Of a stretch of 64,000 nucleotides of DNA, positions 8,468 to 52,312 are shown piece after piece. Origin of the DNA: Naegleria gruberi (taxonomy: Eukaryota); the NCBI GenBank assembly GCA_000004985.1, contig GG738848.1. The stretch is one strand, 5' to 3'. How positions within the stretch are numbered: position 1 is the first letter of the stretch; each line of letters opens with the position of its first letter. A program made the translations under genes and the position numbers. The notes under the pieces are model-generated. The model worked only from the letters and a program-made list of their open reading frames with translations. It did no database searches and had not been told where the DNA came from.

Positions 8468-11400
8468 TTATGCATTTTTAGCAAGATATTTTTCAATTTT
8501 TTCTTTAAACATATCATCAATGTAAGTATTTTGAATGTTAATTACTCGAATGGTATTATTCGATTTGGCAAAATCAATCAAAGCTAAAGCTGCACCAATT
8601 GAAATCAAATTTCCACTCAAATCAAGCTCAACAATTGTTGGATGAGGCTTGAGAATTGAGACTAGGGTTTCAATAGCTGGATTTCTGAACCCTTGTTTTG
8701 GCAAACTCAATTTGTGGAATTCAACATTTAAAAGAGTTTCCAAGAAAGGCTCTAATCCCTTATCACCTAAATAATTGTCTGATAAATTAACTTCTCCATC
8801 GGTGACGATAGTATTTGTGCCAAATTGAGCTCTAAGACGAGTGTTTGGTCTAAGAGATCTCTTTTCACAGTTTTCAACATACACATCCTCAAGAGTTCTT
8901 TCCTTAACAGGTTCTTCTTCCTTAGTTTCTTCCACCACATATTCAGCTTGAGCTTCTTCGACATGTGTTTCTTCTGGTTGTTTGTGTTTTTCTGGTGCGT
9001 CAACACTTGTTTCCTCATGAGGTTCTTGTTTTTCCTCTGGTTGTTGGTGTTTTTCTTGCTTGTCTTCTTGTGTTTCTTCTTTTTGAGATGATTTCACGTG
9101 TGTTTCTTCTGAGAGTTTGGTATCAACAAAAGTTTCTTGGTGTGTTTCTTCCTGTGTTTCTTCATGATGGTTTGTTTCATCTTGTGTTGTGTATGAATCT
9201 TCAATTGTTTTAGTTTCTTCAGCAAATCTCACATGATGTTCCTCTTCAGTGGAAGATTCTTCTGAAGGTTGTTCTTCAAAGGTTTCAAAATCTTCTTCAA
9301 ACGAGTCAAACTCATCTTCCTTTTGAAGTTCAGCTTGTTCTTCTTCATGAGTTGTCTCCTTTTGTTCTTTTTGGTTATCTGCTGTCTCAATCTCTTCTGC
9401 TTGTACCTCCTCTTGTTGGTCAACCTCAAAAGGCAAACTTTCTTCATGGAATGGTTCTTGAACTGTTTGTTCTCTTGGAGATTCTTCTCCAGGAAAATGA
9501 TCCATATCTGTTTCTTGTTGATGACTTGTATCTTCTTTTTCTTCAGCTTCTTCTGATTGTTCTTTCATTTCCTTTTCCACTTGATCAACAAACTCGTTTG
9601 ATTCTTGTTTAATTTCTGTTGATTCCTCATTTGCAAACTCTTCGAATTGTTCCTCGAATTGATCTTCGAAGTGATCTTCGAATTGTTCCTCATGTTGATC
9701 TTGAGTTTCCTCTTGAGTTGGTTCATGGTCTTCTTGAGTTTCTTCTTGAGTTTCCTCATATTTCTCTTCGAAAAATTGATCTGTTTCATTGAACTCTTCC
9801 GTATTTTGCTCGAATTCATCAGTAGTTTCATTGAATTGATTTTCCTCAAAGTTTTCTTCATGACTTTCAATATTTTCAAAATTCTCATGTGTTTGTTCTT
9901 GGTTTTCAAGGCTCTCGAAGGTTTCTTCTTCAGTATTTTCTAGGGCAACTTCGTTATTTTCTGAGAATTCTTGTTCAACATGTTGTTTGCTGTTTTCAAA
10001 TTCATCCTCTTTAGTGACTTCCTCAGAAGATACTTCCTTAATGGACTCTTCATGTGCTGTTTGGTGAACCTCAAAGTCCTCTTCTTCTGAAACATGTACC
10101 TCTTCTGATTGTTCTTCATGTGATTCTTCCAATTCCTCTTGCTTACTTTCCACATATTCAACTGTTTCTTCAACTTGTTTAATCTCGCTTTCCTGATTGC
10201 TTTCTTGATGTCCAATATGTTCTTCGGTGCATTTAATTTCATCATTTTGTTCTTTGTGACTGTGTTCCTCAATAATTTGCTCCTCTTGTTCCTCAACCTT
10301 TTTGACCTCATCAACACTTTCGTGCTTAACTTGATGATGATCTTCAACCCTATCATGGTGTTCTTCATTCTTGATATCTTCCCTATGTTCTTCAGTTGTC
10401 TCAATGTTTTCATGATTCTCTTCGGTATGTTTATGCTCTTCAACAGATGCTTCCTCAATAGCTTGAGGTTTCTCTGTATTGGCAACTTCAAAAGGTAAGC
10501 TTTCCTCTTGAGGTGGTTCTGTAACTGGTTCCATTTTTGGTTCTTCTTCTTTGACAATTTCTTGTGCATGGATTTCTACTATTTCTTCAGTTTGCTCTTC
10601 GGAGGATTTGTTAATAATCTCAGTCTCTTGATATGCAATATTTTCTTGCTTATCATCGTGATTATGCTTTTCCTTCTTCTCTTCATTATCATGCTTTTCC
10701 TTCTTCTCTTCGTGATCATGTTTCTCAACCTTTTCTTCTTTCTTATCGTCTTTCTTCTCTTCAGGATCATGTTTTTTCTTCTCTTCCTTTTCTTCCTCAA
10801 CTTTCTCATCGTGTTTAAGCTCGTTTTTCTTCTCTTCATGATCATGCTTTTCCTTTTTCTCTTCACGATCATGAATCTCAACCTTTTCTTCCTTAACTTC
10901 CTCATGGTTATGTTTATCCTTCTCTTCATGAACATGTTTCTCAACATTTTCTTCCTTAACTTCCTTCTCATGGTTATGTTTATCCTTCTTTTCTTCATGA
11001 TCATGTTTCTCAACATTTTCTTTCTTATCCTCGTCGTGATTATGTATATCCTTCTTTTCTTCATGATCATTCTTTTCCTTCTCTTCGTGGTCATGTTTCT
11101 CAACATTTTCTTCCTTAACTTCCTTAACCTCCTCGTGGTTATGCTTATCCTTCTTTTCTTCATTTTCTGATTTTTTCTCATGACCTATTTCAAATGGCAA
11201 ACCTTCTTCTTGGAGTGGTTCTTGAATCGTTTGTTCTCTTGGGGATTCCACGTCTGCAAAATGATCCATATCTTCAATGTCTCTATGGCTTTTAGTTTCA
11301 GTATCTTCTTGTTCATGTGTTTCATGATCATCTAAGGTTTGATATTGCTCATGGTCGTGGCTTTCAGGAAGGGTAGAGCTGGTTTCATCATGATCCTCCT

Positions 11401-14281
11401 CAGTACACTCTTGTTCAGAGTGCACATCATGGAGATGAATAATAGATGTGTTGATTTCTTCCACATATTCGTTATGTTGGTCCGAATGTACTTCTTGCTT
11501 GATTTCTTCAATATGTTCACCGTGTTCCTCAACCTTTGTTTCCTCATGATTATACTGTTCATCTTGATGATCTGATGGTTCATGATGTTGAGTGGAATCG
11601 TGAGATTCCTGCTCTTCCATTTTTTCTACATGCTCGTCTTGCGCGCCAAATTGTTCATCTGTTTGCTCTACAGTATTAAGGGTGGACTCTTCAACATTCA
11701 CTTCCTCTTCATGTTGTATTTCTTCAGATTTAGGTTCTTCTACTTGTTGGACAGGTTCCTCTTCAAGTGGTTCGGCTGGTTCTTCCTCAGATGGAGATTC
11801 TTCTTGAACTGTGTCCTCATGAGTTGCTTCTATGGCTTGCTCTTCCAGTGGTGTCTCTTCAATAGGTTGCGATTCTTCTTGAATCAGATCTTGTGATTCT
11901 TGAACCTCTTCCTCTGGAGAAACAGGTTCCTCTTGTTCAATTTCTTCTTGTTGAGCTTCTTCGAAAAGTTGCTCTTCTTGAGTCTCTCCGGCTGAATTTT
12001 CTTGGACTGGTTCTTCCTCTTGTGTTTCTTCTTGAACAGTAGATTCCTCAATTGGTGCTTCTTGAACTGTTGCTTCTGGTGTTTCCTCAATTGGTTGATC
12101 ATCTTCAGTTTCTTGAGGAATTTCTTCAGTCTGTTCTTGAGCAGGTTGCTCTTCTTGAACATATTCCTCAATGTCAGCAGGTTGTGCTTCTTGAGCAACT
12201 TCCTCTTGAGAAACAGGTTCTTCCTGTTGAAGTTCTTCTTGTTTATCCTCAACTTCATGAGCAGTTGCTTCTAATGGTTGTTCTTCGTGTACTGGTTCCT
12301 CATCTACAACTTGCTCTATTGCAGGTTCTTCTGGTTGAACTTCTTCTTGTAGTGGCTCTTCATGCTCCTGGGTAGTTTCTTCTTGAGTTGTTACTTCTTC
12401 TGGTTGAGTTTCTACAATCTCCTCAGCTGGTTGAACTTCTTCTTGTAGTGGCTCTTCAGGAGAAGCTTCTTCTGGTTGAGGTTCTTCAATTCTTTCCTCC
12501 TGGGTTTCTTCCACTGGTGGTTCTTCTACTGGCCCAACTTGCTCTGGTTCTTGGGTCTCATCAACAGCTGATAGCTCTTCTTGGTGAGTTTCCACTTCTT
12601 GATCTGTAGATTCGTCAACCTCCTGCACTGGAACAGTTTCTGGGGAGGGGTCTTCATTGAGTTTCTCTTCCTCAGCTTGTTCCCCAACAGGTTGAGCTTC
12701 TTGAACCTCTTCCTCTGGTTGAATTTCTTCTTGCTCTTCTTGAACATGATCTTGGGAAGATTCTTCCTGGGTTGGTTCTTCAACTGGTTGTGATTCTTCT
12801 TGAATCAGATCTTGTGATTCTTGTTGGACCTCTTCCTCTTTAGAAACAGGTTCCTCTTGTTGAAGTTCTTCTTGTTTATCCTCAACTTCATGAGCAGTTG
12901 CTTCTAATGGTTGTTCTTCGTGTACTGGTTCCTCATCAACAACTTGCTCTATTGCAGGTTCTTCTGGTTGAGCTTCTTCAGCAGGAGATTCTTCTTGAAC
13001 TGTCTCTTGAGTTGGCTCGACAGGAAGGTCTTCTTGTGTCTCCAATGGTGCATCTTCAACAGGTTGAGCTTCTTCCTGGGTTGGTTCTTCAACTGGTTGT
13101 GATTCTTCTTGAATCAGATCTTGGGAATATTCTTCCTGGGCTACTGGTTGTTCTTCTTGAGCTACTTCCTCTTGTTCAATTTCTTCTTGTTGAGCTTCTT
13201 CTTCGAAACGTTGCTCTTCTTGAGTCTCTTCAGCCGAATGTTCTTGGATTGCTTCTTCCTCTTGTGTTTCTTCTTGAATAGTAGATTCCTCAATTGGCTC
13301 TTCTTGAACTGTTTCTTCAGGTGATTCTTGGATTGGTTCTTCTTGAGGAACTTCTTCTGTGGATTGAAGTATTTCTTGAGTTTCTTCTGCTTGAGGTTGC
13401 TCTTCTTCAGAAGGAGAAGAATTCACTTCTTGAGGAATTTCTTCAGTCTGTTCTTGAGGAGAATTCACTTCTGTTGCCTCAACAGGTAGGGTTTCCTCTT
13501 CCACTTGTTCTTGAGCTGGAGATTCTTCTGTTTGAGGTTGCTCTTCCAACGGAGCTTCCTCTTCAATAGGCTTATCCTCTTCTTGTGAAGGTTCTTCCTG
13601 AAGTTGTTCGTCCTTAGCTTCAGGCTGGTTTTCCTCGTTCAATTGATCAACCTGGGTTTGTTCTGCTGTTTCCTCTGCAACAGTTTGATTTTCCTCCTGA
13701 AATTCATTTAATTCAGTTTCCCCAGTTGGTGCTGATTCTTGTGGCTTCTCTTCCTCTACTGGTTGATTTTCTTGAGGTGATTCTTCTTGGATTGGTTCTT
13801 CTTGAGGTACTTCTTCTGTTTCTTCGGCCGTAGAAGTATTCACTTCTGTTACTGCTTCGGAAACTTCGGCAGCATCTGAGACAGGTTGTTCCTCTGTTTT
13901 TTCGTCCACTTTGGAATCCTCTTCCTTTGTTGGTTCTGAAATTTCTTCAGTAGTATTATTCTCGATTTGTTCCTTTTTTTCCTCTACAGGATGTTCCTCA
14001 GTATTTTCATTATTTACAGAATTTGATGGTTCCTTATGCTCTTTTTCATCAGAATTGAGGTTAGAAGCCGATACATTTTTTGAACCTTGTTGTTTTTGCT
14101 GATACTCATCCTTGACTGTATTTGCTAGAGCATCTCTGAAAGAAGCATTATCGATAAGAACAGGCGTAAGCTCGACACTTGTAGGAAGACTTTCCACTAC
14201 AGGTTCTGTAATTTCATCTTCATTAAAGTCATCTGTTGTATTTCCGATTAGATTATTATCGTTATGAACCTCAGTGCTCAT
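8468..14281 (-). CDS. giant (1,937 aa) hyper-acidic low-complexity repeat protein with C-terminal RNI-like leucine-rich-repeat cap
   Basis: Continuous minus-strand ORF. The real ATG is at 14279-14281 (aaaaagaATGagc; MSTEVHNDNN...); the track start at 14308 is a GTG artefact. Most of the body is E/Q/P/V-rich (EEPVQEE.., PEEPAIEQVVDEEPVHEEQPLEATAHEVEDKQEELQQEEPVS occurs twice). There is a His/Lys/Glu-rich block (KHDHEEKKDKHNHEEVKE repeats). The C-terminal ~180 aa are LRR/RNI-like (VEFHKLSLPKQGFRNPAIETLVSILKPHPTIVELDLSGNLISIGAALALIDFAKSNNTIRVINIQNTYIDD). Overlapping ORFs on the opposite strand are low-complexity artefacts. Confidence 0.8.
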   Translation of the reverse strand: MSTEVHNDNNLIGNTTDDFNEDEITEPVVESLPTSVELTPVLIDNASFRDALANTVKDEYQQKQQGSKNVSASNLNSDEKEHKEPSNSVNNENTEEHPVEEKKEQIENNTTEEISEPTKEEDSKVDEKTEEQPVSDAAEVSEAVTEVNTSTAEETEEVPQEEPIQEESPQENQPVEEEKPQESAPTGETELNEFQEENQTVAEETAEQTQVDQLNEENQPEAKDEQLQEEPSQEEDKPIEEEAPLEEQPQTEESPAQEQVEEETLPVEATEVNSPQEQTEEIPQEVNSSPSEEEQPQAEETQEILQSTEEVPQEEPIQESPEETVQEEPIEESTIQEETQEEEAIQEHSAEETQEEQRFEEEAQQEEIEQEEVAQEEQPVAQEEYSQDLIQEESQPVEEPTQEEAQPVEDAPLETQEDLPVEPTQETVQEESPAEEAQPEEPAIEQVVDEEPVHEEQPLEATAHEVEDKQEELQQEEPVSKEEEVQQESQDLIQEESQPVEEPTQEESSQDHVQEEQEEIQPEEEVQEAQPVGEQAEEEKLNEDPSPETVPVQEVDESTDQEVETHQEELSAVDETQEPEQVGPVEEPPVEETQEERIEEPQPEEASPEEPLQEEVQPAEEIVETQPEEVTTQEETTQEHEEPLQEEVQPEEPAIEQVVDEEPVHEEQPLEATAHEVEDKQEELQQEEPVSQEEVAQEAQPADIEEYVQEEQPAQEQTEEIPQETEDDQPIEETPEATVQEAPIEESTVQEETQEEEPVQENSAGETQEEQLFEEAQQEEIEQEEPVSPEEEVQESQDLIQEESQPIEETPLEEQAIEATHEDTVQEESPSEEEPAEPLEEEPVQQVEEPKSEEIQHEEEVNVEESTLNTVEQTDEQFGAQDEHVEKMEEQESHDSTQHHEPSDHQDEQYNHEETKVEEHGEHIEEIKQEVHSDQHNEYVEEINTSIIHLHDVHSEQECTEEDHDETSSTLPESHDHEQYQTLDDHETHEQEDTETKSHRDIEDMDHFADVESPREQTIQEPLQEEGLPFEIGHEKKSENEEKKDKHNHEEVKEVKEENVEKHDHEEKEKNDHEEKKDIHNHDEDKKENVEKHDHEEKKDKHNHEKEVKEENVEKHVHEEKDKHNHEEVKEEKVEIHDREEKKEKHDHEEKKNELKHDEKVEEEKEEKKKHDPEEKKDDKKEEKVEKHDHEEKKEKHDNEEKKEKHNHDDKQENIAYQETEIINKSSEEQTEEIVEIHAQEIVKEEEPKMEPVTEPPQEESLPFEVANTEKPQAIEEASVEEHKHTEENHENIETTEEHREDIKNEEHHDRVEDHHQVKHESVDEVKKVEEQEEQIIEEHSHKEQNDEIKCTEEHIGHQESNQESEIKQVEETVEYVESKQEELEESHEEQSEEVHVSEEEDFEVHQTAHEESIKEVSSEEVTKEDEFENSKQHVEQEFSENNEVALENTEEETFESLENQEQTHENFENIESHEENFEENQFNETTDEFEQNTEEFNETDQFFEEKYEETQEETQEDHEPTQEETQDQHEEQFEDHFEDQFEEQFEEFANEESTEIKQESNEFVDQVEKEMKEQSEEAEEKEDTSHQQETDMDHFPGEESPREQTVQEPFHEESLPFEVDQQEEVQAEEIETADNQKEQKETTHEEEQAELQKEDEFDSFEEDFETFEEQPSEESSTEEEHHVRFAEETKTIEDSYTTQDETNHHEETQEETHQETFVDTKLSEETHVKSSQKEETQEDKQEKHQQPEEKQEPHEETSVDAPEKHKQPEETHVEEAQAEYVVEETKEEEPVKERTLEDVYVENCEKRSLRPNTRLRAQFGTNTIVTDGEVNLSDNYLGDKGLEPFLETLLNVEFHKLSLPKQGFRNPAIETLVSILKPHPTIVELDLSGNLISIGAALALIDFAKSNNTIRVINIQNTYIDDMFKEKIEKYLAKNA
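10620..11170 (-). repeat. coding minisatellite (~60-66 nt unit) encoding His-rich KHDHEEKK/KHNHEEVKE repeats inside the giant acidic gene
   Basis: Directly visible tandem near-copies such as ttcttcatgatcatgtttctcaacattttcttccttaacttcct(t)ctcatggttatgtttatccttc, repeated at least 7 times with point differences. The translation is a periodic ...EEKKDKHNHEEVKEEKVEKHDHEEK... Confidence 0.8.
11850..13150 (-). repeat. degenerate tandem duplications (~630-nt super-unit with ~130-nt near-identical cores) in the E/Q/P/V-rich part of the giant gene
   Basis: Near-identical blocks at ~12213-12350 and ~12845-12975 (...aacaggttcytcctgttgaagttcttcttgtttatcctcaacttcatgagcagttgcttctaatggttgttcttcgtgtactggttcctcat...). 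Further copies ggttgtgattcttcttgaatcagatcttg occur at ~11861, ~12771 and ~13081. Confidence 0.7.
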
Positions 14282-15002
14282 TCTTTTTGTTTTTTCAATG
14301 TTATACACCTAGTTTATGTAATAAATAATTGTTTAAGTCCTTATTATTTAAAAAAATTAATGACCAACAATGTGTTGAGGGTTGTTGGGATTTTTTTTGT
14401 TCTGTCTCTTGCCCTTAAAATGCTCTTGCTAAGACTACAATGCAGCCAATATGACACATGCACAACCCGCCAATAAAAACTACAAAAAATCCTCTTTTAC
14501 GCCTGTACCTAACCAAGTACAAGGAGGTTCTTTGCAAAGATTTAAACTCACACCCAACGCTTTGACGATAATTGATGTGTTTGTGCCTCTCTACGAGTTG
14601 GGCGGGAAAGTAATAAAAAGAAAATGGGCATATAAAATACCAATTCTGTAAATTCTGTATCGATCACAGAAGAGATCCATTAGTATGATCTTCATCATTC
14701 TCTATTGTGAATAATTCTAAAGTTCAACTGAGATTTTAAACCTTGGAAAGAAATCAACACCAAACAAGTGTCTTCTCATTGTTACCAACTTGGAGAGCTC
14801 ATTATATCCAAACAGAACTCACAACAAATTGTAGGAATTTGTCTCATTTTGATGATCAGTTTCGTCTGCCTAATTTTATTAGACAAGTAAGATTTGAATT
14901 TGTATTTAAAGATTTAACAGGTCTTAATCTGGAATATTTCTGAATTACCATTAGGTAGCTATTCCAATGAAAACAAGATAAAGTTATGTAGACTATTATT
15001 AT

Positions 15003-48643: not shown

Positions 48644-49837
48644 AATACACAAAATGTCTAATAACAAAACTTGTAAAGTTGTCGCTGTTGGTAAGTATTT
48701 ACTATTGAATTCAAAGTTTATTAATTTGAATTTACAGGTGACGGTGCTGTCGGTACGTAGGAGAAGAAATTTCGTTGTTGATTATTAATTGATGGTTTTA
48801 AATTGACATTTGACAATAACAGGAAAGACTTGTTTGTTGATGGTCTATGTTAATAATGAATTTCCGGAGGATTACATTCCTGTAAGTAAAATAGCCTAAA
48901 CTTGTTGTTATAACCTTTCATCATCATCATAGACTGTCTTTGATAAGTATGTATTTGTGCGCTCTATTTGATGAATTAAATTCATCCAAATCACATCATT
49001 CTAATAACAACAATAACAAAATAATATATAGCTATGATACCAATGTAAAATACCAAGATAGTGTTGTTCGTTTGAGTTTATGGGATACAGCTGGTCAAGT
49101 AAGTAATAATTCGTTCATGAAAAAATTAATGCTAAATTGATGAAAATTTCAATTATTTGATTTTGTTTTTCTAACATTGTTCCATGATGAATACGTATTC
49201 ACTCTCTTCCTAAACGTTAAATAGGAAGGTAAATATTATTATTTATTTAAATTTATATTCATGGTGATGATTTATTATAATAGAGTAAGTATTATTCTTG
49301 TTCAATAATTATTGAAGGTTTACTTTCTTCTTGCTTGTTTATTTTGAAAATTTCTCTATTATTCAAAAATAGATATGATCGTCTGAGATATCTTTCATAT
49401 CCAAATACCAACGTTTTTATTGTTTGTTTCTCCGTAAATAGTAGATCATCATATGATAACGTTAAAGAAAAGGTAAGTTTCGAATATTTTACTGAGCAGT
49501 AAAGCTCACATACGTTTAGTGGCTTAAGGAATTGAATGAATACAGCAAGGGAACACCAATCATTCTCGTTGCCACCAAGATCGATATCAGAGATGACAAG
49601 GCAATGATTGAACAATTAGCTAAAGATGGTGAAAAAGTTCTCACAGCAGAAGAAGGTGAAAAACTTGCAAAGGAAATCGGAGCAGCCCACTACATTGAAA
49701 CATCAGCTCGTACACGAAAGGGTGTTGATGAAATTTTCCAAAAAGCTTTGGATGTTCGTTTTGCTAAAGGAGGAAAAGCTGCAACTCCAAGCAATGAATC
49801 TAAAGGAAATGGTGATGGATGTTGTATTTTAATGTAA
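48644..49837 (+). CDS. Rho-family small GTPase (Rac-like), at least 7 exons including a 14-nt micro-exon; one junction unresolved
   Basis: Exons supported by homology and GT-AG: 48644..48680 ([13 protein letters not shown]), 48738..48752 (DGAV), 48823..48881 ([20 protein letters not shown]), 48933..48946 (TVFDN, micro-exon), 49032..49098 ([22 protein letters not shown]), 49373..49472 ((E)[33 protein letters not shown]), 49520..49837 ([26 protein letters not shown]...GCCILM*, a CAAX end). Between 49099 and 49372 a 2-mod-3 mini-exon, giving E(E/D) before YDR, is required but I could not place it with canonical sites. Confidence 0.75.
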
Positions 49838-52239: not shown

Positions 52240-52312
52240 GCTGGCGTAGCTCAGTCGGTAGAGCGTTGGTCTAATAAGCCATTGGTCGCCGGTTCGATCC
52301 CGTCCGTCAGCA
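52240..52312 (+). tRNA. tRNA-Ile, anticodon AAT (read as IAU)
   Basis: The 73-nt cloverleaf folds by hand. The acceptor stem GCTGGCG/CGTCAGC has 7 bp with one G-U. The D-arm is GCTC-AGTCGGTA-GAGC (A-box TAGCTCAGTCGG). The anticodon stem is TTGGT/GCCAT with loop CTAATAA (anticodon AAT). The T-arm is GCCGG-TTCGATC-CCGTC (B-box GGTTCGATCC). The discriminator is A and no CCA is encoded, as expected in eukaryotes. It is close to human tRNA-Ile-AAT. There is one mismatch in each of the anticodon and T stems. Confidence 0.8.

Follow-up and report, generated by a model that had tools for sequence, protein, structure and literature searches.

A putative one-nucleotide exon adjoining a four-nucleotide exon in a Rho-family GTPase gene of Naegleria gruberi

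A splice junction in the switch II region of a Rho-family GTPase gene of Naegleria gruberi NEG-M, which an earlier note had held impossible to close with canonical sites, very probably closes with GT-AG introns only, through a 4-nt exon and then a 1-nt exon, the A at position 49284 of the window (the whole stretch of DNA analysed, 64 kb long, with a GC content of ~33%). With equally high probability, the mRNA carries the join CAA GAA GAA TAT GAT through this one-base exon. The codons for Glu62 and Glu63 would then be cut by three GT-AG introns within five coding nucleotides (CAA/126 nt/GAAG/55 nt/A/88 nt/ATATGAT; slashes mark splice sites throughout). The case for the putative 1-nt exon is a comparative one, and we regard it as strong: the anatomy of the sequence, its conservation, the selective constraint on the gene and the lack of any other closure common to the species are all directly observed. 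We further consider it likely, if a little less so, that the Naegleria spliceosome constitutively splices a 1-nt exon older than the split between N. gruberi and N. fowleri, and that N. gruberi then added a third intron, so that a 4-nt and a 1-nt exon adjoin and a single Glu codon is drawn from three exons.

Three long ORFs of the window match, in exact sequence, the N. gruberi NEG-M proteins EFC49349, EFC49205 and EFC49197, encoded on a scaffold of 712,659 nt. The gene lies on the plus strand and runs from an ATG at 48654 to a stop codon ending at 49837; the span of 48644-49837 proposed in the earlier note is correct at its end, while its start moves 10 nt downstream, to the ATG. When 49225-49228 and 49284 are included, in-silico splicing yields a stop-free, in-frame coding sequence of 615 nt, which reads WDTAGQEEYDRLR and encodes 204 amino acids in nine exons (37/15/59/14/67/4/1/100/318 nt) separated by eight introns, all GT-AG and 47-126 nt long. 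The exons, and the introns of the disputed interval, are as follows.

48654..48690, plus strand: exon 1, 37 nt, ATG..GTT G, followed by the donor gtaagtat
48738..48752, plus strand: exon 2, 15-nt micro-exon GTGACGGTGCTGTCG (GDGAV), placed by in-silico splicing
48823..48881, plus strand: exon 3, 59 nt
48933..48946, plus strand: exon 4, 14-nt micro-exon ACTGTCTTTGATAA (TVFDN), with catag before it and gtatgt after it
49032..49098, plus strand: exon 5, 67 nt, ending TGG GAT ACA GCT GGT CAA (WDTAGQ) in phase 0
49099..49224, plus strand: intron, 126 nt, gtaagt..aaatag
49225..49228, plus strand: exon 6, predicted 4-nt micro-exon GAAG, codon 62 (GAA) and the first base of codon 63
49229..49283, plus strand: intron, 55 nt, gtaaat..taatag, phase 1, common to the orthologs and the paralog
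49284..49284, plus strand: exon 7, predicted single-nucleotide exon A, supplying the central base of codon 63 (GAA = Glu), tag/A/gtaagtat
49285..49372, plus strand: intron, 88 nt, gtaagtat..aaaaatag
49373..49472, plus strand: exon 8, 100 nt, A TAT GAT CGT.., opening with the third base of codon 63 and ending ...KEK
49520..49837, plus strand: exon 9, 318 nt with the TAA stop counted, WLKELNEY...GDGCCILM, ending in the CAAX box CILM

The spliced protein matches the Pfam Ras family (PF00071, E 5.2e-52) and aligns without gaps to residues 3-176 of human Cdc42 (E 2e-60), including DTAGQE(E/D)YDRLR and the Rho insert region, which places what had been called a Rac-like gene in the Rho family. The product combines a Ras-type G domain, a Rho-type switch II and insert, collinearity with solved Rho proteins and a CAAX box. 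Like Rac1 and Cdc42 (e.g. PDB 1doa, 1foe), it has the P-loop GDGAVGKT, the switch II sequence DTAGQEEYDRLR, the Rho insert and a C-terminal CAAX motif (CILM), but it matches both about equally and is assignable to neither subfamily. Its closest proteins are heterolobosean Rho GTPases: Willaertia magna ABK040_006747 is 79% identical over the full length, and Naegleria lovaniensis C9374_014469 is 87% identical but is a truncated, 155-residue model. Pairwise Nei-Gojobori estimates of dN/dS are 0.02-0.18 upstream and downstream of the junction, with dS of ~0.8-1.4 between N. gruberi and the others. Strong purifying selection therefore acts on both halves of the gene, and an in-frame join between them is required.

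The 14-nt exon (TVFDN, 48933-48946), which had been proposed to lie between two GT-AG introns, is borne out: its boundaries are the same in N. lovaniensis, N. fowleri and W. magna, and its join to exon 5 is confirmed by an uncultured metagenomic relative (locus L006), in which the 14-nt block is contiguous with exon 5 (ACTGTGTTTGATAACTATGAT). The earlier account did not include the 15-nt exon at 48738-48752. The same 15-nt exon is present in N. lovaniensis, N. fowleri and the uncultured relative, and is fused to exon 1 in Willaertia.

At the disputed junction, our coordinates agree in full with those reported before: WDTAGQ closes exon 5 at 49098, the large exon that follows begins at 49373, GAAG occupies 49225-49228, and one base is missing. 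With GAAG appended, exon 5 stops in phase 1, but exon 8 opens in phase 2, which leaves the frame exactly one base short. When GAAG is spliced in without 49284, the frame shifts and meets a stop after QEDMIV, and the frame also breaks without either micro-exon. GAAG had been regarded as the only candidate for the missing piece, yet the intervening sequence holds a second one: 55 bases past GAAG, in ataatag/A/gtaagtat, a single A at 49284 is flanked directly by a canonical AG acceptor and a consensus GT donor. Codon 63 (GAA) would then be assembled from three exons, the 4-nt exon giving its G, the 1-nt exon its first A and exon 8 its last A. The cDNA from exon 5 to exon 8 is predicted to read GGTCAAGAAGAATATGATCG, with the core join GAAGAATATGAT; the spliced N. 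gruberi product would be ..GGTCAAGAAGAATATGATCGT.., with the junction k-mer GCTGGTCAAGAAGAATATGATCGTCTGAGATATC, and the corresponding k-mers would be ..CGTCTCAGATATC in N. fowleri and ..CGTCTTAGATATC in N. lovaniensis. Protein searches with full-length, C-terminal-half and junction-centred queries, which also covered transcriptome-derived proteins, returned no junction-spanning product at 95% identity or more, and the spliced 23-mer GGTCAAGAAGAATATGATCGTCT found five contigs in metagenomes, all of them unrelated fungal or other Rho genes.

Orthologous loci were fetched through protein matches, and gene models were reconstructed for five orthologs. Loci L004 and L005 belong to N. fowleri, since a neighbouring gene is identical to FDP41_009371. 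The paralog used as a ruler is N. lovaniensis P0069. The junctions, as reconstructed, compare as follows.

N. gruberi (window): CAA/gtaagt..tag/GAAG/gtaaat..tag/A/gtaagtat..tag/ATATGAT
N. lovaniensis (L002): CAAGAAG/gtatgt..gtttag/A/gtaagtat..aacag/ATATGAT, with the A at L002:3976
N. fowleri (the two independent assemblies L004 and L005, identical at this junction): CAAGAAG/gtacgt..tttcag/A/gtaagtat..aatag/ATATGAT, with the A at L004:4642
Uncultured relative (L006, JGI metagenome 3300002220): CAAGAAG/gtatgt..aacag/AATATGAT
W. magna (L001): CAAGAA/gtaggt..tatag/GAATATGAT; the annotated protein reads QEEYDRLR
N. lovaniensis paralog (L013): CAAGAAG/gtatgt..attag/AATATGAT

The uncultured relative, Willaertia and the N. 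lovaniensis paralog have fewer introns and can serve as length rulers; all of them spell CAA GAA GAA TAT GAT. The one-base deficit of N. gruberi recurs, equal in size, in N. lovaniensis and N. fowleri, and YAG/A/GTAAGTAT is present in the orthologous introns of all three Naegleria species, although these introns are otherwise diverged and unalignable. The 126-nt intron between CAA and GAAG is found in N. gruberi only; N. lovaniensis, N. fowleri, the uncultured relative and Willaertia are without it (CAAGAAG contiguous), and the bases GAAG form the end of exon 5 in these other species. The position of the 88-nt intron is occupied in N. gruberi, N. lovaniensis and N. fowleri, and empty in the uncultured relative, Willaertia and the paralog.

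We evaluated the conserved element quantitatively. Across N. gruberi, N. lovaniensis and N. fowleri, the inter-exon regions have AGAGTAAGTAT as their longest common word, which forms an island in their MAFFT alignment; none of 5000 shuffles reached a shared word of at least 10 nt. This conservation represents about two independent lineages rather than three, since N. lovaniensis and N. fowleri are close (dS 0.22). In two-way shuffles of N. gruberi against N. fowleri, a shared word of at least 11 nt arose in ~4.6% of trials, because the introns are AT-rich. YAGNGTAAGT is found a single time in the 64 kb of the window, both strands counted (0.6 expected), and this copy lies in the 144-nt interval that needs it; TAGGAAGGTAA also occurs once in the window (0.04 expected).

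Splice sites were scored with a position matrix that we derived from the five orthologs' 23 other introns, which are 45-238 nt long and all end in AG (donors GTAAGT in 14, GTACGT in three, GTTTGT in three, GTATGT in two and GTAGGT in one). Among the 15 GT sites between 49090 and 49372, the top donors are 49099 (CAA/gtaagtaa, 11.0, the best of the set), 49285 (10.0) and 49229 (6.7), with the rest at 0.9 or below; the top acceptors among the nine AG sites are 49284, 49373 and 49225, on a matrix that discriminates weakly. The site at 49284 thus combines a donor score of 10.0 with an acceptor score of 5.1, both inside the reference ranges, while the donor after GAAG in N. gruberi (gtaaat, 6.7) falls slightly under the reference range of 7.9-13.3. 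The three best donors and acceptors interleave to give introns 126, 55 and 88 nt long, all inside the 45-238 nt of the reference set. When we enumerated every GT-AG path with zero to two micro-exons that is in frame and stop-free, the path through the 1-nt exon was the sole one common to all three species, and the sole one to yield QEEY.

Could the junction be closed in another way? Of the three options that the earlier note had offered, the evidence supports a second micro-exon, as the A at 49284 in three species; the other two, a non-canonical splice and an assembly indel, fare poorly. A non-canonical splice would take the form of one intron, running from GAAG/gt.. to an acceptor one base upstream (N. 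gruberi and N. fowleri would use ..aaaata/GATATGAT, N. lovaniensis ..aaaaca/GATATGAT), to give Q-E-G-Y-D and the cDNA GAAGGATATGAT, with AGAGTAAGTAT left as an intronic element with some other role. The arithmetic fits in all three species, the G of the terminal AG being the missing base, and no 1-nt exon is needed. However, TA or CA 3' splice sites would be required, and 23 of the 23 reference introns end in AG; Gly would stand in switch II where every retrieved homolog has Glu or Asp; the uncultured relative, Willaertia and the paralog encode GAA at this place through AG acceptors; and an 11-nt conserved island of acceptor plus donor would be left unexplained. We consider this closure very unlikely.

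It is similarly improbable, and perhaps a shade more so, that each species closes the junction in its own way, by weak alternative GT donors or a different micro-exon. Paths of this kind exist, and all are in-frame, stop-free and GT-AG: in N. gruberi they give QVSNNSYDRLR (donor gttcat, 49113) or QSKYDRLR (5-nt exon AGTAA at 49284-49288, donor gtatta), in N. lovaniensis QEGIYDRLR (gtttta) and in N. fowleri QEGTYDRLR (gttgtg). Transcripts joined differently from the 1-nt-exon path would, for example, read CAAGTAAGTAATAATTC-ATATGAT or retain gtaagtaataattc. Yet the donors of these closures score from -1.2 down to -13, where reference donors reach 7.9-13.3, and each path skips or reads through a site scoring 10-11. 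Their products vary by species and insert or replace residues in switch II, whereas the flanking ~60 residues are identical (dN/dS 0.02-0.03 upstream). None of these closures is common to the species, and none explains the conserved tag/A/gtaagtat or the tag/GAAG/gtaaat of the window.

Decay of the gene or a one-base assembly indel, near 49225-49230 or at the acceptor, would be expected to leave exactly such a one-base deficit, but we give either next to no probability. The indel fails on the agreement of four independent assemblies about the deficit: N. lovaniensis and both of the N. fowleri assemblies would need the identical extra base at the identical place, where they show the equal deficit with its compensating A; in addition, an independent N. 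gruberi-like metagenome contig (L003) reproduces the ..aaaaatag/ATATGAT acceptor exactly. That the gene might prove a pseudogene, as the earlier note had allowed, is at odds with the low dN/dS on either side of the junction (at saturating dS), and all other exons are intact, with canonical sites and no other frame disruption in the five orthologs. A processed or decaying pseudogene, with dN/dS near 1 and disabling mutations, is thus not what we found. Restoration of the frame after splicing, in an mRNA ...GAAGATATGAT from which the A is skipped, by ribosomal frameshifting, transcriptional slippage or insertion editing, is formally possible with nothing specific in its favour and is scarcely credible, since CAAGAAGATATG, as read from the sequence, holds no slippery heptamer of the form X XXY YYZ, the conserved intronic pair of splice sites would be unaccounted for, and nuclear insertional editing is, to our knowledge, not known in Heterolobosea.

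How might a spliceosome handle a putative exon of one nucleotide? The introns of this gene family are short (45-238 nt), which makes intron definition probable. An acceptor complex on ..tag/A and a U1 complex on A/gtaagtat would overlap physically and could not bind at the same time, so the flanking introns would have to be excised in succession. We infer that the two introns around 49284 are removed sequentially, in a manner resembling recursive splicing with one base kept. Either order would work: removal of the downstream intron first would create an ordinary acceptor, ..tag/AATATGAT, and removal of the upstream intron first would create an ordinary donor, GAAGA/gtaagtat. In all three Naegleria species the donor after the single A is GTAAGTAT, a sequence that would be expected to pair with the 5' end of U1 wholly on the intron side (+1 to +8), so that no exonic bases would be needed.

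The distribution of introns suggests how such an arrangement could have arisen. The phase-1 intron (GAAG/../AA) is old, as the paralog shares it. A second intron, gained one base downstream of it in the lineage of N. gruberi, N. lovaniensis and N. fowleri, would have left the 1-nt exon, and the extra intron of N. gruberi, four bases upstream, would have left the 4-nt exon; the direction of these changes is inferred from presence and absence among the orthologs. After the 14-nt block, Willaertia has an intron and the uncultured relative has none, so this relative has probably lost introns. Should a reverse-transcribed mRNA have mediated the loss, the AATATGAT of this relative would indirectly preserve the join made by splicing.

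It is instructive to compare the Naegleria junction with systems already described. The single-nucleotide exon of Arabidopsis thaliana APC11 was validated experimentally (Guo & Liu 2015, PMC4674806), through cDNA sequencing and through protoplast constructs that carried substitutions and deletions, and its authors proposed that the flanking introns are removed sequentially, in a recursive-like fashion, by intron definition (PMC4674806). As in Naegleria, the exon is an A between AG and GT in a supposed single intron, needed for the frame and missed by annotation. The differences are that APC11 is transcript-validated, while the Naegleria exon is predicted from genomic comparison; that APC11 has one ultra-micro-exon in a 422-nt interval, while N. 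gruberi would have a 4-nt and a 1-nt exon consecutively (three introns in five coding nucleotides); and that one organism is a plant and the other a discoban protist. The one-nucleotide exon of Fusarium CYP621A, spanned by SRA reads and described by its authors as the "second example" (Nelson & Syed 2026, PMC12940212), is a G (AGGGT) found in 20-24 orthologs of one fungal genus (PMC12940212). It resembles the Naegleria case in its phase-incompatible flanking exons, its conserved AG-N-GT in orthologous introns, the use of an intron-poorer homolog as a ruler, the division of a codon of a conserved motif among three exons and erroneous gene models in the databases; it differs in that the Naegleria base is an A (AGAGTAAGT), in a Rho GTPase gene of three amoeboflagellate species, one of which would have a 4-nt exon next to it. 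Together, APC11 and CYP621A show that spliceosomes process 1-nt exons (PMC4674806, PMC12940212). The Naegleria site would thus share the defining anatomy of the known 1-nt exons and be new in its lineage (Discoba), its gene and its adjoining 4-nt exon.

The ratchet points of Drosophila and vertebrates also place a 3' splice site directly against a strong 5' splice site (YAG/GTAAGT) and use the two sequentially, which makes them a likely mechanistic analogue. However, they retain no nucleotides and subdivide very long introns, while Naegleria would keep one nucleotide among introns of 47-126 nt. With one A between AG and GT, and that A needed for the frame, the 49284 site falls outside the class of zero-nucleotide recursive splice sites, since one base is retained, even if it probably works like one.

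The only nuclear single-nucleotide exons in the literature that we searched are those of APC11 and CYP621A, although catalogues of plant micro-exons also exist, and full-text searches yielded no paper on nuclear micro-exons in Naegleria. The Naegleria exon, if real, would be only the third nuclear one-nucleotide exon reported and the first outside plants and fungi, and no tandem pair of exons smaller than that of N. gruberi would have been described. Exons of one nucleotide stand at the lower bound of what a spliceosome can define. If Discoba, remote from both plants and fungi, supply a third case, this would suggest that intron-defined splicing has the ability in general, not as a quirk of one lineage, and that such splicing has no lower limit of exon size across eukaryotes. 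With three introns inside five coding nucleotides, N. gruberi would also offer a natural substrate for tests of ordered or recursive splicing.

The junction appears to have left its mark on gene annotation as well. The GenBank annotation of N. lovaniensis splits the gene into models of 67 and 155 amino acids that meet exactly at the junction, and the 15 matches at E ≤1e-30 in the protein collection include no model from N. gruberi or N. fowleri with the C-terminal 138 amino acids. With the gene split or without a model in these species, a conserved Rho GTPase of a human pathogen and of its model relative is mis-annotated or missing. If the 1-nt exon is real, hidden ultra-micro-exons would lead to gene models being split or missed in Naegleria genomes, that of the pathogen N. 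fowleri among them, and pipelines unable to represent exons of 1-4 nt will repeat the error.

Searches for the origin of the three introns and for the partner of their donors gave little. An Rfam scan of the window, made for U1 complementarity, found no snRNA and one tRNA only. When the three introns were compared by blastn with the window and with other introns, for an introner or transposon origin, only short AT-rich chance words were returned. The introns beginning at 49229 and 49285 are alike in their first 12 nt (gtaaRtattatt), a resemblance that is not significant.

In an uncultured relative, two introns of the Rho-family GTPase gene are absent: one after the 14-nt exon 4 (TVFDN) and one after the single A that forms the 1-nt exon (window 49284). 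The loci concerned are as follows.

L006 516-600 and 688: intron-less junctions of the uncultured relative (contig of JGI metagenome 3300002220)
L001 4396-4470: Willaertia magna intron within the Glu-Glu codons, phase 0, GAA/gtaggt..tatag/GAA
L002 3176-3980 and 4001-4593: N. lovaniensis ortholog, as two GenBank genes (PYSW02000008.1)
Window 48738-48752, + strand: 15-nt exon GTGACGGTGCTGTCG, encoding GDGAV of the P-loop

Because Willaertia has the intron after the 14-nt block, the uncultured relative has probably lost introns; its uninterrupted stretch provides a built-in ruler by which to read the spliced mRNA. The N. lovaniensis ortholog is divided in GenBank into two models of 67 aa and 155 aa (C9374_014469), with the break exactly at the 1-nt exon, and the N-terminal start of the 155-aa model, MNDRMNDSMSIGSSCENR, is a spurious peptide from the intron.

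The Willaertia Glu-Glu intron (phase 0) lies one base off the phase-1 position found in Naegleria and the N. lovaniensis paralog, a displacement that looks like a one-base intron slide. The two N. gruberi introns flanking the 1-nt exon begin alike at 11 of 12 positions (gtaaatattatt, 49229-49240, vs gtaagtattatt, 49285-49296), a likeness that is not statistically significant; an origin of these introns by local duplication would be compatible with it.

The 15-nt exon is a further small exon in this gene, unflagged in the earlier note. It is kept in N. lovaniensis, N. fowleri and the uncultured relative; in Willaertia it is joined to exon 1, with no intron between them.

Two further features lie elsewhere in the window.

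8468-14308, - strand: 1946-aa ORF, with raised GC and a very strong negative AT skew, especially at 10000-14000
52240-52312, + strand: tRNA-Ile, anticodon AAT (Rfam, 59.9 bits; ARAGORN)

Over the ORF, GC rises to 0.425 and AT skew is very strong (-0.44 to -0.47), a pattern that points to coding sequence that is repetitive or biased in composition. The tRNA-Ile gene is located ∼2.4 kb 3' of the GTPase gene.
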